Below, piece after piece: positions 8,841 through 11,943 of a stretch of 13,808 nucleotides of DNA. Position numbers and translations under genes: made by a program. Source of the DNA: a virus; the UHGV virus genome UHGV-0313909; one strand, given 5' to 3'. Every line of letters starts with the position of its first letter. Within the stretch, counting starts at the first letter, position 1. Under the pieces are notes generated by a model that was given only the letters and a program-made list of their open reading frames with translations, was not told the origin of the DNA and searched no databases.

Positions 8841-8930
8841 TTCTTCGCAATGGAGAACTTTTAAGTTTTCAAAATGGAATAATGCGGTATCATTATTGTG
8901 AATTTAGCAAAAATGGGGAGAACTCGAAAA

Positions 8931-9149
8931 ATGATGATTTGCCCACTGTGTGGAAGTGCCGCCCATACTCGCAGCAGTTTTCAGGTATCTTCATTGACCA
9001 AAGAGCGTTACAACCAGTGCCAGAACATTAACTGCAGCCATACTTTTGTTACCCATGAAACTTTTGTTCGTTCGATTGCAACGCCAAAAGAGTCAAATCC
9101 GGTTCAGCCGCATCCAATGAAATCAGGACAGGTGGCGCTCTCTCTTTGA
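8931..9149 (+). CDS. ogr: Ogr/Delta-family zinc-finger late transcription activator (186 B / P2 Ogr)
   Basis: MMICPLCGSAAHTRSSFQVSSLTKERYNQCQNINCSHTFVTHETF carries the C-x2-C...C-x4-C zinc-finger pattern of Ogr. Start moved to 8931 (GGGGAG SD upstream), giving 72 aa, the size of P2 Ogr. Confidence 0.85.
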   Translation: MMICPLCGSAAHTRSSFQVSSLTKERYNQCQNINCSHTFVTHETFVRSIATPKESNPVQPHPMKSGQVALSL

Positions 9150-9176
9150 CTCTGCCGCCATTTTTTCACCATTGCT

Positions 9177-9206
9177 AAAAACAGTGATTCTAAAAATCAT
9201 TGTTTT
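9177..9206. terminator. Candidate bidirectional hairpin between convergent ogr and the downstream minus-strand gene
   Basis: Imperfect inverted repeat AAAAACAGTGATT-cta-AAAATCATTGTTTT with A-run on one side and T-run on the other, in the 68-bp gap between two convergent stops. The stem is AT-rich, so predicted stability is low. Confidence 0.25.
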
Positions 9207-9217
9207 CGAATAAGTGC

Positions 9218-9721
9218 CTAGCATCCGATAAGGTCGTTTGCTTCAAACTTTGGCAAATGATACTCATTTGCCAAATGTTCGTTATCTTTGTTATTTTTTA
9301 AATATTTGTATTTTAATGTATTTTTATCTTCATTGTATGATAATAAAGCTTCCCCGATAGGAACATCACGCCACCCTATTTGAATGCAAAGAAGGATAGT
9401 GACCTGCCCTTTATGGTTTAGCTTACCCGAGAATGTAAAGGTGCATTTCTCTTCATCAAGGCTTGTTGATGAACAGTTAGTGATAGTCCCTCCCAAATTG
9501 CCGACGACATCTGATGACTCAATTTTTATGCTTATTATATTCTCATTATGGTTGCGAATATCACCAACATTGTTCCAGTTTTTTGAGACTAGAAGCTCAA
9601 TAATTCTTTTTTTCTTAAGGCGTTTTACTTCCTTTGCCTGTGGTGAGTATAAGAGGTATGCGGGTATGCCTGCTACAATCGTTGCTACAATTGCCAGCAC
9701 AGCTAATATAATGGTAACCAT
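9218..9721 (-). CDS. Hypothetical membrane-anchored protein, AT-rich cargo (moron) gene
   Basis: 167-aa ORF from ATG 9721-9719 with AAGGA SD 6 nt upstream. N-terminal hydrophobic helix followed by KEVKRLKKKR, then a Lys/Asn-rich ~140-aa domain. The track's 212-aa version starts at a TTG with no RBS and is discounted; ATG at 9748 is an alternative start. Confidence 0.55.
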   Translation of the reverse strand: MVTIILAVLAIVATIVAGIPAYLLYSPQAKEVKRLKKKRIIELLVSKNWNNVGDIRNHNENIISIKIESSDVVGNLGGTITNCSSTSLDEEKCTFTFSGKLNHKGQVTILLCIQIGWRDVPIGEALLSYNEDKNTLKYKYLKNNKDNEHLANEYHLPKFEANDLIGC

Positions 9722-9788
9722 CTGAAGTCCTTGTTCTTCTGCCGCCATTTTGCCGCCAAAGATAAGTAAAGTAGTTTCTAACTTATTG

Positions 9789-9818
9789 ATTATGGAATGG
9801 AAGAATAGCAGGCAACAA
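9789..9818 (-). promoter_or_regulatory. Candidate sigma70 promoter for the cargo gene
   Basis: On the minus strand: TTGTTG (9818-9813), 18-nt spacer, CATAAT (9794-9789); about 60 nt upstream of the ATG at 9721. Confidence 0.3.
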
Positions 9819-9901
9819 AAAACCCATTTATGTAAACGGGTTAATGAAAACAACAAGTTAGATTAAAAACAATAAGTTAGGTTGGTGGTCAGTGGTGGTT
9901 A

Positions 9902-10954
9902 TTACGGGGTAATGCCAACCGCTGCCGCCACTTTGTCGCCACTTGGCAGCGTTGCCAGAGGATTGAAACGGAGCGCCGTTTCCAGATGATCCGGTGCCAG
10001 ATGTGCGTAACGCATAGTCATTTTTATATCGTGGTGTCCGAGAATTTTTTGTAAGGCCAGAATGTTTCCACCCGACATCATGAAGTGCGCCGCAAACGTA
10101 TGGCGCAGAACGTGTGTGAGTTGACCGCGAGGGAGCACGATAGACGTTTTTTCCATCACGGATAAAAATTGAAAATAGCAGTCTGTGAAGAAATTGAACC
10201 CATCAAGCGCCATGATCTCTTCGTAAAGCTCTTTACTGATAGGGATACTTCTGTTTTTCTTCCCCTTCGTTCTTACAAAGGTAATTCGGTATTTGGTCAC
10301 CTGTGAACGAGTAAGATTTACGGCTTCTCGCCAGCGTGCGCCTGTGCTTAAGCATATCTTAACTACCAGTGCTAGAATTGGGTCCTGACGTTTGCAATCA
10401 GCCAGTAATTCAACAATCTGCTCATGGGTAAGCCATGCCATCTCTTTTTCTGCGATGGTGAATTTTCGCATGTTCTCCAGTGGGTTCGGATACGACCATT
10501 CGCCCAGACGGGATAGTTCGCTAAAAACACTACTTAGATAGCTTTGCTCCAGGTTAATGGTGACCGGGCTTGCTCCTTTCTTCCATTTCTCGCTGAAGTA
10601 GATCTCGCCTGTCAGGCGTTTATCTCGATAGTGGGCAAACATTTTAGAGGTGAGATCGGTTGCAAGAGGATTGCCCAGAGCGCCAACCATCAGCAGCAAT
10701 TTGTCATAGACATGCTGCCCAGCAGTCAGAGATTTACCATGTAGTTTGAACCATAGCTCAACCACGTCTTTCAGGGTTCGACGATCCACTGATTCGCCCA
10801 GCCATGGCTTTGATTCGGTTTCTTCCATAGTGTGACGCTCAAAAGCCAGAGCTTCGCCTTTGGTGGCGAATTGTTTACGCACACGACGCCCACTTCGTCC
10901 GGCGGGGTAACATTCGCAAAGCCATTTCCCTGTGGTGAGTTTTCGTACTGCCAT
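9902..10954 (-). CDS. int: Tyrosine integrase (P2/186 Int family)
   Basis: MAVRKLTTGKWLCECYPAGRSGRRVRKQFATKGEALAFERHT... parallels the P2 Int N-terminus (recalled); C-terminal catalytic region has ARWREA...HVLRHTFAAHFMMSGGNILALQKILGHHDIKMTMRYAHL with the R..H-x-x-R..Y signature. Start placed at the ATG of MAVRK (10954); the track's 402-aa version extends into AT-rich upstream sequence. Confidence 0.9.
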   Translation of the reverse strand: MAVRKLTTGKWLCECYPAGRSGRRVRKQFATKGEALAFERHTMEETESKPWLGESVDRRTLKDVVELWFKLHGKSLTAGQHVYDKLLLMVGALGNPLATDLTSKMFAHYRDKRLTGEIYFSEKWKKGASPVTINLEQSYLSSVFSELSRLGEWSYPNPLENMRKFTIAEKEMAWLTHEQIVELLADCKRQDPILALVVKICLSTGARWREAVNLTRSQVTKYRITFVRTKGKKNRSIPISKELYEEIMALDGFNFFTDCYFQFLSVMEKTSIVLPRGQLTHVLRHTFAAHFMMSGGNILALQKILGHHDIKMTMRYAHLAPDHLETALRFNPLATLPSGDKVAAAVGITP

Positions 10955-11142
10955 AAAAAATGCCCTCCAGTAGAGAGCATTTTTACTGTATGTATAACCA
11001 GTGTCAATGTATGAAATCCTACGACCATACATCTCACTGAAGCCATAATGAAGTTGGCTATTCTTTTTGCTATGTGAGCATGTAACTTTTGCGGTTAACC
11101 TGCGGCTCATTTTTATTTTAGACGCAGATATAAAAGCAAAAG

Positions 11143-11334
11143 TTATCGTGAGTTTTTAGTACAGATTTTTTTGGATTTACTAATAGTTCCATCATTGCAA
11201 ACGAATTTGCCATCTGAGGTACAGTGAGAAACACCTCCCTTTTTCCCTGAGCAGGGATAATTTCTAGCATAGGTAGTTAGTGGGTTTAATAACAAAGAAC
11301 ATGACAAAACCACAAAAAATACCTTACCAAGCAT
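11143..11334 (-). CDS. Small secreted cysteine-rich basic peptide (hypothetical)
   Basis: 63-aa ORF; strong SD GGGAGGA 5 nt before the ATG; starts 15 nt after the cI stop, so co-transcribed with cI. Predicted signal peptide [23 protein letters not shown]; mature ~40 aa with 4 Cys and many Lys. AT-rich. Confidence 0.5.
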
Positions 11335-11349
11335 AGTTTCCTCCCGGTA

Positions 11350-11919
11350 CTATTTAACATACTTGACTGTTAAACTTATAATTTTACCAATTATTTCAAT
11401 GTCTTCTATCTTACATTCGAAGGCTCTGTTTCCACCCTCGACGAAGATTCTTCCACCGGGTAAACGAGTAATGTCACGGATCGTTACTTCGCCATCAATA
11501 CTTATTACCCATTTACCATCACGTATATCATCAAATTCTTTATCACAAATAAATTCAGAATTGTTATCTGTGATGACAAAAGGTTTTTTAAACGTAGAGG
11601 GTAGAAATCCCTTATCAAAAATATAAAAACCGTCTTCACGCAAGGCACCATCAGATAATACATATTTAGCAACTTCCATAGTATTTGTATTACCTGAAGT
11701 TTGCTTTGAACCATGTCCGGTTGTGAGCCAATTAAGCGAGGTGCCCGTTTCAAGGGCGCACTGGATTACCCATTCTGCTGGGAATGAGTCACGCATGTAG
11801 CGTGTGGCGAGTGTACTTTTAGAGATTCCTAAATGATCGCACAACGCCTGTCGAGTTTTGAATCCATAAGCTTCTACCATGCGCTCTATAGCGCCTCGTC
11901 CGCCTTTCTCCAAATTCAT
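11350..11919 (-). CDS. cI: CI-type immunity repressor (phage 186 CI-like)
   Basis: 189 aa; N-terminal HTH region (AYGFKTRQALCDHLGISKSTLATRYMR) and C-terminal domain; size and position (upstream of int, divergent from apl/cII) as in 186. Start placed at ATG 11919 with GGAG SD rather than the track's GTG at 11925. Confidence 0.8.
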   Translation of the reverse strand: MNLEKGGRGAIERMVEAYGFKTRQALCDHLGISKSTLATRYMRDSFPAEWVIQCALETGTSLNWLTTGHGSKQTSGNTNTMEVAKYVLSDGALREDGFYIFDKGFLPSTFKKPFVITDNNSEFICDKEFDDIRDGKWVISIDGEVTIRDITRLPGGRIFVEGGNRAFECKIEDIEIIGKIISLTVKYVK

Positions 11920-11943
11920 GGTCACTCCAAGTGAACTTTTATC

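Follow-up and report, generated by a model that had tools for sequence, protein, structure and literature searches.

A YdcA family gene between cI and int of a 186/P2-like Escherichia coli phage: a candidate periplasmic factor in the exclusion of incoming DNA

A small ORF lies between the cI repressor and integrase (int) genes of the virus genome UHGV-0313909, and its position raises the question of what such a gene does in a lysogen. We analysed the whole 13,808-nt stretch of this genome (the window). A first-pass annotation, made from the letters of the window, had proposed that the ORF encodes a small secreted cysteine-rich peptide that is expressed in lysogens and is a candidate conversion factor. 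We asked whether the ORF is a gene, to which family it belongs and what its product might do. We found that it is an accessory gene (moron) of a 186/P2-like temperate E. coli phage, located in a variable cargo slot between cI and int.

Position, selection and expression of the gene

We located the ORF on the lysogenic strand (Table 1). The first-pass annotation had described a 63-aa ORF with a strong Shine-Dalgarno (SD) sequence, GGGAGGA, 15 nt past the cI stop and upstream of int. Coordinates and sequence both agreed with this description, and the terminator scan found no terminator between cI and the ORF. The cI ORF (Pfam Phage_CI_repr and Phage_CI_C) ends with TAG at 11350-11352, exactly 15 nt (TACCGGGAGGAAACT) from the ATG of the gene, hereafter ydcA; the GGGAGGA motif is 4 nt 5' of this ATG. 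PGAP places the cI start at an ATG at 11919 and names the products of the two flanking genes 'phage repressor protein CI' and 'phage integrase'. ydcA is the sole ORF of the cargo block.

Table 1. Coordinates of features in the cI-int region of the window
Feature	Position	Strand	Details
cI repressor gene, 186-type	11350..11925	(-)	Pfam PF07022 (E = 2.8e-33), PF16452 (E = 5.4e-29)
cI-ydcA gap with Shine-Dalgarno GGGAGGA	11335..11349	(-)	15 nt, sequence
ydcA-like gene	11143..11334	(-)	ATG start, 63-aa precursor, stop TAA at 11143-11145; ORF listing and translation
Signal peptide coding part	11266..11334	(-)	Residues 1-23, predicted cleavage between TYA and RN
Mature domain	11146..11265	(-)	Residues 24-63, 40 aa, 4 Cys, pI 9.7
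Long hairpin from ydcA stop codon	11083..11145	(-)	RNA fold -20.5 kcal/mol, z = -3.7
Cargo block between cI and int module	11015..11349	(-)	335 bp: SD, ydcA, 128-nt 3' untranslated tail
Conserved int leader	10955..11014	(-)	60 nt; part of int module, not of ydcA
Integrase gene	9902..10954	(-)	350 aa from the ATG used by PGAP; Pfam Int_N and Phage_integrase

We compared ydcA with the 93%-identical copy in BL21(DE3). The two copies differed by 11 synonymous changes and 1 non-synonymous change (dN/dS of about 0.02; range for ydcA, 0.02-0.07), and 11 of the 12 differences were at third codon positions. None of the 15 positions of the SD gap differed between the copies, whereas the flanking coding DNA differed by 6-15%. 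These data show that ydcA is under strong purifying selection. The gene is still intact in the decayed BL21(DE3) prophage, and BL21(DE3), E. coli B and E. coli C are natural carriers of the prophage copy. Across complete E. coli genomes, the cargo was present in 590 of 5,426 (~11%, roughly 1 in 9), BL21(DE3) among them. The low dN/dS, together with the family HMM matches given below, bears out the earlier proposal of a real, selected gene, and we conclude that the ORF is almost certainly a genuine translated gene.

We assessed how ydcA might be transcribed. Because a consensus promoter scan did not find the lysogenic promoter of the window phage, membership of ydcA in the cI operon rests on its geometry and on annotated relatives, namely 186, HP2 and K139, where pL is annotated as driving cI and downstream genes. 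By analogy with these pL operons, ydcA is probably co-transcribed with cI in lysogens. The hairpin at the ydcA stop has no U-run after it and is possibly a 3' stabiliser.

The 60-nt int leader differs from the cargo block in its conservation. It was 96.7% identical in the phages 813R9 and 4LV2017 and showed 0 of 60 differences from BL21. In the leader, the int SD GGAGGG (10963-10968) is sequestered by a 13-bp hairpin (10956-10984); a U-run comes after the hairpin, 1 nt ahead of the int AUG. The leader fold was strong (-18.5 kcal/mol, z = -5.7), and the opposite strand folded more weakly. The terminator scan missed this minus-strand hairpin; RNA folding shows it clearly. The promoter scan returned a promoter-like TTGACA-17-AAAAAT at 11007-10979 in the leader.

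We examined the same slot in related phages. The cI and int genes of 186 overlap by a single nucleotide, and in P2 the 115 nt from C to int contain no ORF; the slot is thus empty in both, in line with the adjacency of repressor and int that the first-pass annotation gave for these phages. For 813R9 and 4LV2017, homology to the window starts at 11012-11014 and runs through int at 96.7% identity, and upstream of this point both carry other cargo than the window phage. The 813R9 slot holds PD-Lambda-1 (E = 3e-120), next to the same int and rcdA attachment site as in the window phage. The slot in E. coli NC101 holds ydcA together with a KAP NTPase (PDC-S20, E = 2e-171, PifA-like), that of Haemophilus phage HP2 a YdcA homologue and a Sie-like ORF, and that of the Vibrio cholerae phage K139 orf2 and Glo, the latter annotated 'periplasmic protein; involved in phage exclusion'. 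YdcA homologues also occupy the slot in Yersinia prophages. Altogether, the order cI then ydcA was seen in E. coli, three Yersinia species, Buttiauxella, an Enterobacterales MAG and Haemophilus HP2/S2, with differing cI and int alleles. A search of PADLOC-DB 2.0 gave no match for YdcA; the slot neighbours in relatives matched PD-Lambda-1 and PDC-S20. Previous work has described a cI-int defence hotspot in K139-like phages (PMC9122126) and has placed 8% of P2 defence systems between int and primase (PMC13586616). The cI-int cargo slot is a defence/exclusion hotspot.

The YdcA domain, its export and its relatives

We performed HMM searches with the translated ORF, which the first-pass annotation had left without a family name ('small exported DUF-type'). 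The protein matched NCBIfam NF007463 (E = 5.3e-34; 115.8 bits, above the curated threshold of 93; protein residues 5-63 on model positions 1-58 of 58) and phrog_6000 (E = 1.9e-34). PF27300.1 is precomputed on homologues of the protein, and RefSeq/PGAP names it 'YdcA family protein' (WP_000900883.1). A Pfam scan with a release older than PF27300 gave only a sub-threshold chance match for the ORF. All 16 invariant columns of a 27-sequence family alignment are found in the window protein, as is the four-Cys basic motif P-C-S-G-x-K-G-G-x-x-x-C ... F-x-C-x-D-G-x-x-S-x-S-K-x-x-C. The protein can be placed in the YdcA family (NF007463 / PF27300 / phrog_6000) with near certainty. Relatives formed 457 clusters at 50% identity, and the family ranges over alpha-, beta- and gamma-proteobacteria, phages and plasmids.

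Other labels were set aside. A match to the NCBIfam lpg1681 family was weak (E = 0.11) and was taken as noise. UniRef has the label 'Conjugal transfer protein'. There is no T4SS gene near the prophage copy, and this label probably spread from plasmid contexts, e.g. a TraD-adjacent copy. Three entries share the name and are unrelated: B. subtilis YdcA (a rhomboid), pS88 ydcA (a DNA methylase) and ydcA of the gonococcal genetic island.

We judged the export signal by rule (n-, h- and c-regions, the -3/-1 rule and the family alignment). The n-region is MLGK, the h-region spans V5-L16 (best 11-residue Kyte-Doolittle mean, 2.77), and NPLTTYA forms the c-region, which places T at -3 and A at -1. Across the 27-sequence alignment A23 never changes, the remainder of the signal peptide varies freely, and the mature domain stays close to invariant in gamma-, beta- and alpha-proteobacterial members. 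Because a variable leader precedes a near-invariant mature domain and the A at -1 is invariant, the ydcA product is predicted to be exported to the periplasm, and we hold this to be very likely. K-12 YdcA has likewise been predicted to be a periplasmic protein with a signal sequence (bioRxiv 10.1101/2024.02.12.579971). Rule and alignment thus agree with the Sec/SPase-I-type signal peptide and the basic 4-Cys mature part of ~40 aa in the first-pass annotation. A lipoprotein, which that annotation had suggested checking for, was rejected: there is no valid lipobox at Cys12 (VLSC12), which lies 11 residues from the N-terminus with K4 in the forbidden stretch and is absent in most homologues, unlike the A-x-A type site at residues 21-23, which is conserved in them.

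The mature part contains 9 K/R but only 2 D, its net charge is about +7, and its calculated mass is 4,293 Da, or 4,289 Da with two disulfides formed. Lysines are among its invariant residues (P27, C28, S29, K32, G33, G34, C38, F44, C46, D48, G49, S52, S54, K55 and C58). The AF2 model is a beta-hairpin with pLDDT 81-89 over residues 31-60.

We searched for the YdcA domain in other proteins. Behind a signal peptide, it is joined to nucleases of three unrelated folds, namely SNase (PF00565), Endonuclease_NS (PF01223) and PLD-like (PF13091). For one fusion, the best 120 of 744 homologues were all PF27300+PF01223, cultured Methylobacter genomes included. An hmmsearch of the family profile against PDB sequences retrieved Dis2 (7muc_AN, E = 2.1e-5), the only solved relative of the domain. 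Dis2 was also the top Foldseek match of the AF2 model, with a Foldseek E of only 0.4, and the model superposed on 7mud_AN with an rmsd of 1.8 Å over 27 columns at 38-44% identity. In the literature, Dis2 is Legionellales-specific, without homologues, and its deletion has subtle effects; its link to YdcA appears to be unrecognised there. On a five-gene MOBQ plasmid, a YdcA homologue directly follows the TraD gene. Many other family members are chromosomal, without mobile-element context, e.g. K-12 ydcA beside cybB and trg. A neighbourhood census (141 flanking ORFs, 72 species-level loci) revealed no recurrent functional partner; what recurred was the E. coli-type cybB/trg locus, DUF2946 (6 loci) and assorted prophage genes. 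Because no neighbour gene is conserved, YdcA appears to act alone.

A possible barrier to incoming DNA, and other readings

Four observations suggest a link to the passage of DNA through the Gram-negative envelope: the gene has repeatedly been captured in the P2-like cI-int slot, the domain serves as N-terminal module in three unrelated families of secreted nucleases, it is homologous to Dis2, and it occurs on a five-gene mobilisable plasmid. We favoured DNA traffic as the more specific reading because nuclease fusions, a homologous T4SS subunit and a defence/exclusion hotspot occur together; the envelope modifier or receptor blocker offered by the first-pass annotation may still apply. DNA itself is suggested as the ligand because the three unrelated nuclease folds share only substrate and compartment, because the mature peptide is strongly cationic with invariant lysines, because Dis2 belongs to a T4SS that evolved from conjugation systems, and because the plasmid homologue adjoins TraD. 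Mobile elements use periplasmic nucleases against incoming DNA (PMC12378983).

In the mechanism that we propose, the cI (lysogenic) transcript would be read through ydcA, and translation would start from the gene's own strong SD. Sec would export the 63-aa precursor, signal peptidase I would cleave it after Ala23, and periplasmic oxidation would yield a strongly cationic beta-hairpin mini-protein of 40 residues with two disulfides. In function, the YdcA domain would be a periplasmic, outer-membrane-proximal binder of polyanions, most likely DNA; other bacteria fuse the domain to secreted nucleases, and Legionella has incorporated it into a T4SS outer-membrane cap. Produced constitutively in lysogens as a free-standing protein, YdcA would hinder foreign DNA crossing the envelope. 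The outcome would be protection of the superinfection-exclusion or entry-exclusion type, as an analogue, not a homologue, of K139 Glo. That the window protein has a function tied to exclusion of incoming DNA in lysogens is a tentative reading, possible rather than probable.

Several points stand against DNA binding and exclusion. Phage and conjugative DNA is normally shielded in the periplasm, and a soluble binder may not reach it. Dis2 contacts the lipoproteins DotK, DotC and DotD, not DNA. The N-terminal domain of the nucleases could serve localisation or folding rather than substrate binding, and the hotspot location is guilt by association only. Many family members, moreover, reside on chromosomes rather than on mobile elements, and PADLOC lacks a model for YdcA.

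YdcA might instead be an outer-membrane-proximal docking protein or entry blocker. Like Dis2 in the Dot/Icm cap, it would bind a partner, protein or lipid, just under the outer membrane. Exclusion would then come from contact that covers or perturbs a receptor, a porin, a secretin or a route of injection, without DNA binding; in the fused nucleases, the domain would act as a tether keeping the enzyme under the outer membrane. The location of Dis2 near the outer membrane and its lipoprotein contacts fit this reading, as do the match of the family profile to Dis2 (E = 2e-5; AF2 model on 7mud_AN, 1.8 Å, 27 columns, 44% identity), a cationic surface that could bind anionic inner-leaflet lipids, as proposed for Dis3 (PMC8486379), and a slot that also houses the periplasmic exclusion protein Glo and a Sie-like ORF. 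However, Dis2 is distant and two-lobed, and its partners are Legionellales-specific. The mature domain is >50% identical in three proteobacterial classes, which argues for a universal ligand over a lineage-specific protein partner, and no partner gene is conserved beside ydcA. We consider docking rather unlikely. Much the same standing falls to a host-fitness (lysogenic conversion) factor that acts in envelope or acid stress. On this view, a small basic protein in the periplasm would shield envelope components from acid or organic acids, a role that K-12 ydcA may have as well, and the prophage copy would benefit the lysogen without acting on foreign DNA. The only reported ydcA deletion phenotype, sensitivity of E. 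coli W to 300 mM 3-hydroxypropionate, and the reported induction of ydcA at pH 5 under YdcI (PMC7642389) point to envelope or acid stress and against DNA exclusion. The many chromosomal members without mobile-element context and the intact gene in the decayed BL21(DE3) prophage are also consistent with a stress factor. This explanation does not account for fusion to three nuclease folds, for the T4SS relative Dis2 or for repeated capture in a defence/exclusion slot and by a five-gene mobilisable plasmid; moreover, deleting yieP suppressed the ydcA deletion phenotype, in which the neighbouring rydC sRNA locus could be involved. We regard a stress role as improbable, though not negligible.

The remaining explanations carry far less weight. 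An antimicrobial peptide, one of the roles offered by the first-pass annotation, would be a secreted bacteriocin that kills competitors, and YdcA is indeed small, cationic, disulfide-rich and found on mobile elements. It is disfavoured by its cargo, in which ydcA is alone, with no immunity, processing or export partner there or in 70 other genomic contexts. In addition, a Sec signal delivers only to the periplasm in a Gram-negative cell, and the YdcA domain is also found as a module within enzymes and within a T4SS subunit. We judge this role very improbable. A chance ORF in an untranslated int leader, with no functional gene, would suit the small size and the lack of a match in the Pfam scan, and it is already refuted, for practical purposes, by the conservation pattern: matches to the family HMMs (E about 1e-34), 11 synonymous changes for 1 non-synonymous change, 457 clusters of relatives, and a conserved int leader that takes in only the 60 nt beside int, the ORF lying outside it.

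A broader form of the barrier to incoming DNA can be stated with low confidence. The YdcA domain would be a previously unrecognised periplasmic module that binds DNA or a DNA-entry site, and its free-standing copies (prophage, plasmid and chromosomal; K-12 and BL21(DE3) included) would be a one-gene, 40-residue barrier against phage injection, conjugation and transformation. If such a barrier exists, YdcA would be the smallest known exclusion factor and would add a periplasmic layer to prophage-encoded defence. Dis2, the 'species-specific' T4SS subunit and an orphan part of a major virulence machine, would also gain a role, as would the N-terminal module that a large group of secreted nucleases shares. 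The hypothesis is cheap and testable for the YdcA family, which includes a K-12 y-gene.

Comparison with known systems

The gene is not of a new kind. It is ordinary in the sense that it is already annotated by RefSeq, belongs to a named family and is common in E. coli genomes; the new context is the slot occupancy across relatives, the nuclease fusions and the Dis2 homology. The closest named system is E. coli K-12 YdcA (b1419; PRK10040 group, PF27300, PHROG 6000), of the same family as the window protein. Both have a signal peptide followed by a basic 4-Cys domain of 35-40 aa (PCSGxKGG..HC...F.C.DG..S.SKK.C). K-12 ydcA is chromosomal and core-like, between cybB/rydC and trg, whereas the window copy is phage cargo in a lysogeny operon. 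Chromosomal-type YdcA shares about 57% protein identity with the window protein, which scores 68.5 against a cut-off of 118 with the K-12 YdcA sub-model NF007462.

Among slot cargo, PD-Lambda-1 (813R9) and PDC-S20 (NC101) occupy the same slot as the window ydcA, flanked by cI and the 96.7%-identical int module. They are large cytoplasmic NTPase-type systems, in contrast to YdcA, a predicted 40-aa periplasmic peptide that can co-reside with other slot cargo (NC101, HP2). Glo of K139 is, like the window ydcA, a cI-int gene with an export signal in the lysogenic operon of a P2-related phage, and it is described as a K139 family immunity gene. Unlike the window protein, Glo has 137 aa and lacks the 4-Cys motif. 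Homology between the two was rejected (hhalign probability 2.5%, with only the signal peptides aligned), and the likeness is one of position and compartment only. The exclusion lipoproteins Cor, Llp and Ltp have a lipobox with an invariant Cys; the window protein has none.

In the secreted nucleases (e.g. a Methylobacter 'DNA/RNA non-specific endonuclease'), the YdcA domain is N-terminal, with the same Cys/Lys pattern as in the window protein. The fusions carry a catalytic domain, whereas the window protein is the module alone, so no nuclease activity is possible for it. Dis2 (Lpg0823) is an outer-membrane-cap subunit of the Legionella Dot/Icm type IVB system (PDB 7MUC/7MUD chain AN), and T4SS genes are absent from the window, a P2/186-like phage genome. 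Dis2 has two tandem lobes in a 124-aa precursor with five disulfides, clearly visible in density (PMC8486379), and is a stoichiometric subunit present in 13 copies, in contact with the three lipoproteins named above; the window protein is a free single domain with four Cys. Each Dis2 lobe is homologous to the YdcA domain and conserves the pattern C..S.K.GG...C......VCN.G..S. Dis2 is periplasmic, disulfide-stabilised and near the outer membrane, and YdcA is predicted to share all three properties.

Gene order and transcription signals around ydcA

The window represents a temperate E. coli phage of P2/186-like type, in a circular (excised) permutation. In E. coli chromosomes, where the integrated prophage adjoins rcdA, stretches 9150-9827 and 9809-9950 match opposite prophage ends, which places attP near 9809-9827. 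The first-pass annotation had described a small exported, cysteine-rich peptide gene between cI and int. Upon checking the sequence, its coordinates, spacing, Shine-Dalgarno sequence, basic mature part with four cysteines and hydrophobic leader were all correct. Its statement that repressor and int are adjacent in related phages is also correct, and the slot is empty in both 186 (1-nt overlap) and P2 (115 nt apart with no ORF).

Features of the lysogeny and tail-fibre regions (coordinates in the window)
Feature	Coordinates	Strand	Remarks
cI	11350-11925	minus	Pfam Phage_CI_repr and Phage_CI_C
cI-ydcA gap		minus	15 nt, TACCGGGAGGAAACT; carries the Shine-Dalgarno sequence
ydcA	11143-11334	minus	63-codon ORF
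ydcA-int interval		minus	188 nt, without a credible ORF
int	ATG at 10954 to 9902	minus	
Apl/Cox-like ORF and cII		plus	opposite to cI, ydcA and int
Tail-fibre assembly gene	164-766	minus	next to the serine invertase, as is the tail-collar-domain fragment
Tail-collar-domain fragment	766-1266	minus	
Serine invertase	1288-1860	plus	Resolvase and HTH_7

Judging from the shared strand, the short gap to cI and the lack of a terminator, ydcA would be transcribed from the lysogenic promoter. This promoter, pL, is annotated in 186, HP2 and K139; a consensus promoter scan did not locate it in the window. The scan returned sigma-70-like sites no more numerous than in shuffled sequence. One such site, close to consensus (TTAACA-17-TATAAT, 11354-11382, plus strand, 11/12 matches), lies in an AT-rich region where cI meets ydcA and faces antisense into the cI 3' end.

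We made two further observations on gene content. Between ogr (8898-9149) and attP, a minus-strand ORF (9218-9856, likely start ATG 9751) encodes a product of 177-212 aa whose N-terminus is predicted to form a membrane helix, and it has no match in Pfam, NCBIfam, PHROGs or PADLOC. Only 3 of 5,426 complete E. coli genomes contain this stretch at 100% identity, so the ORF is a rare cargo gene at the att-ogr position in P2-like phages. Separately, 164-1860 resembles an invertible tail-fibre segment of the Gin/Hin type, which would switch host range, and contains an inverted repeat of 15 nt (1139-1153/1624-1638).

Family membership, constraint and export signal

The HMM search proposed in the first-pass annotation identified the family as YdcA. 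The product scored 115.8 bits against NCBIfam NF007463 (E = 5e-34; curated cut-off 93) and matched phrog_6000, of unknown function (E = 1.9e-34). Precomputed Pfam PF27300 is present on its homologues, and an identical protein is listed in RefSeq/PGAP as 'YdcA family protein' (WP_000900883.1). K-12 YdcA has been described as having 57 aa, a signal sequence and a predicted periplasmic location, its function being unknown (bioRxiv 10.1101/2024.02.12.579971).

The exact protein sequence is found in at least 1,000 contigs in public collections. The cI-ydcA-int block (at least 80% of the query covered) is present in 591 of 5,426 complete E. coli genomes. ydcA differs from the BL21(DE3) copy at 12 positions, 11 synonymous and 1 non-synonymous (dN/dS 0.02); 11 of the 12 lie in third codon positions, and the gap carrying the Shine-Dalgarno sequence is invariant. 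dN/dS was 0.07 against the copy in E. coli NC101. In comparisons with the Yersinia copies, synonymous sites have reached saturation and pN of the mature domain is 0.06-0.09. ydcA is a real, constrained gene of the YdcA family, and the idea that it is not a gene at all is effectively excluded.

We assessed export by rules and by comparison across 27 family members. The sequence of the product has the hallmarks of an export signal, with an n-region that is short and basic, a hydrophobic core of 12 residues and the cleavage motif T-Y-A. The alanine at -1 is invariant while the leader varies freely; the mature domain is nearly invariant, with 16 invariant columns that include all four cysteines. 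An AF2 model from the family alignment showed a small beta-hairpin unit (pLDDT 81-89 over the mature core). The precursor would be cleaved after A23 to release a mature peptide with two predicted disulfides. We also considered Cys12 as a lipoprotein site and rejected it, as no lipobox is formed and Cys12 is not conserved among homologues.

Tenants of the cI-int slot

Pairwise comparison showed that int and its 60-nt leader (10955-11014, minus strand) are 96.7% identical to those of Escherichia phage 813R9 and Klebsiella phage 4LV2017, the leader being shared at this level among phages with different cI and cargo. The match ends abruptly at 11012-11014, which defines the cargo as 11015-11349. 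This 335-bp block consists of one gene, its Shine-Dalgarno sequence and a tail of 128 nt, and a hairpin lies at the stop codon. By itself it is present in 590 complete E. coli genomes, including BL21(DE3) and E. coli B and C (93% identity). The stop-codon hairpin (11083-11145, minus strand) is long and imperfect (-20.5 kcal/mol, z = -3.7) and lacks a trailing U-run. The NC101 variant, whose homology stops near 11166, has other sequence in its place.

Within the int leader, a 13-bp hairpin (10956-10984, AAAAAUGCUCUCU/GGAGGGCAUUUUU, -18.5 kcal/mol, z = -5.7) buries the int Shine-Dalgarno sequence and leads into a U-run 1 nt ahead of the int AUG. The -10 hexamer of a promoter-like TTGACA-17-AAAAAT (11007-10979) falls within the 5' arm. 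Speculatively, cI-ydcA read-through transcripts may terminate or stay translationally silent at this hairpin, while transcripts begun at the promoter-like site would be without the 5' arm and could allow int expression.

Other phages carry other genes in the slot: a 558-aa PD-Lambda-1 protein in 813R9 (L166 4091-5767; PADLOC E = 3e-120), a 349-aa unknown protein in 4LV2017, and orf2 plus Glo, annotated 'periplasmic protein; involved in phage exclusion', in Vibrio phage K139. In NC101 (L169 1142-2473), a PifA-like KAP NTPase (PDC-S20, E = 2e-171) lies downstream of a 60-aa ydcA variant. The PD-Lambda-1 protein and the KAP NTPase mark the slot as a defence hotspot of rcdA-integrating P2-like E. 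coli phages.

YdcA itself recurs here. Haemophilus phages HP2 and S2 encode a 60-aa homologue (HP2: NC_003315 2486-2668, complement; L001 2920-3102) between cI and orf1(S)/int, with no feature annotated at this ORF in either record. In both phages the start ATG of this ORF and the cI stop codon overlap, and next comes an exported ORF of 254 aa with a weak Sie-like match in PHROGs. Prophages of Yersinia alsatica, Y. aldovae and Y. nurmii have the order cI, 47 nt, ydcA, ~97 nt and an int of a different type, and ydcA also lies just downstream of the repressor in Buttiauxella and an Enterobacterales MAG. In a Buttiauxella brennerae prophage (L088 3588-3989), a 133-aa exported ORF (leader MIFCCLFLAGIAHA; no Pfam match) sits between cI and ydcA, its stop overlapping the ydcA start. 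With HP2, this makes two cases in which ydcA is paired in the slot with a gene for another secreted protein.

The YdcA domain elsewhere and its proposed function

An exhaustive profile search returned 457 clusters at 50% identity, most of them stand-alone proteins of 55-130 aa, some with two or three tandem YdcA domains. In other members (P0198, P0172, P0195, P0105, P0183, P0231-P0349), the same signal peptide and YdcA domain precede a nuclease domain of one of three kinds: SNase (PF00565, E = 5e-24), Endonuclease_NS (PF01223, down to E = 8e-33) or PLD-like (PF13091, E = 5e-19). The PF27300+PF01223 architecture was found in all of the best 120 of 744 homologues of fusion P0198 (E ≤ 1e-10), including cultured Methylobacter genomes, where it is annotated as DNA/RNA non-specific endonuclease; this rules out an assembly artefact. 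By sequence, the YdcA domain is a regular N-terminal module of secreted nucleases. Because these three unrelated catalytic folds share only a nucleic-acid substrate and an extracytoplasmic location, the simplest view ties the role of the YdcA domain to one or the other.

Long forms of ~100-150 aa (P0056, P0058, P0060, P0062, P0119, P0148), beta-proteobacterial and metagenomic, add a second Cys-rich C-terminal module (C-x-C-x5-C-[TA]-G-P-[RK]-G-G-x-[YF]-C...Y) that echoes C-S-G-x-K-G-G (cf. NF007464, 112 aa). Homologues also occur in Acinetobacter Vieuvirus prophages and a Pseudomonas phage, between head and tail genes in Moraxella prophages, where the gene is small, and in 57 plasmid records. 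The five-gene Acinetobacter pittii plasmid pApiMCR53a (L172, 3,916 bp, MOBQ) encodes TraD, YdcA, two unknowns and MobA, the 58-aa YdcA (728-904) directly following TraD (PF06412). This adjacency may be why UniRef labels the E. coli protein 'Conjugal transfer protein'. Among 141 ORFs flanking 72 species-level loci, we observed no recurrent partner gene.

We tentatively propose that the mature peptide acts in the periplasm, near the outer membrane, as a cationic module that would bind a polyanion, most likely DNA, and that the free peptide would hinder foreign DNA entry in lysogens; we hold this as a possibility well short of an even chance. A less probable role is docking on an outer-membrane-proximal partner, as Dis2 does in the Legionella Dot/Icm T4SS. 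Dis2 (PDB 7MUC/7MUD chain AN), called species-specific and without structural or sequence relatives in the literature, matched the YdcA family profile (E = 2e-5), and its two lobes are each similar to one YdcA domain.

Service to host fitness in acid or envelope stress is about as probable as docking, and is suggested by the only reported ydcA phenotype, the 3-hydroxypropionate sensitivity of an E. coli W deletion, together with induction at pH 5 (PMC7642389). We give comparable weight to an explanation not yet thought of, and a bacteriocin is so improbable as to be effectively excluded. The decayed P2-like prophage of BL21(DE3) (NZ_CP053602 873356-877601) has a truncated cII and replication gene and keeps int, ydcA and cI intact, which makes this strain a ready-made experimental system.

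Overall, the first-pass observation was confirmed and its interpretation is supported in part: the gene is real, its product has export-signal features and it lies between cI and int. An exported moron in a lysogeny operon is no surprise to a specialist. The nuclease fusions, the T4SS subunit and the defence slot converge on a concrete hypothesis for a long-standing 'y-gene' family, testable in BL21(DE3). ydcA belongs to a known but uncharacterised family and occupies a hotspot of a known type. YdcA has no PADLOC model and had not been catalogued before as a recurrent tenant. Of P2 defence systems, 8% have been counted between int and primase (PMC13586616), and a defence hotspot between cI and int is recognised in K139-like phages (PMC9122126).
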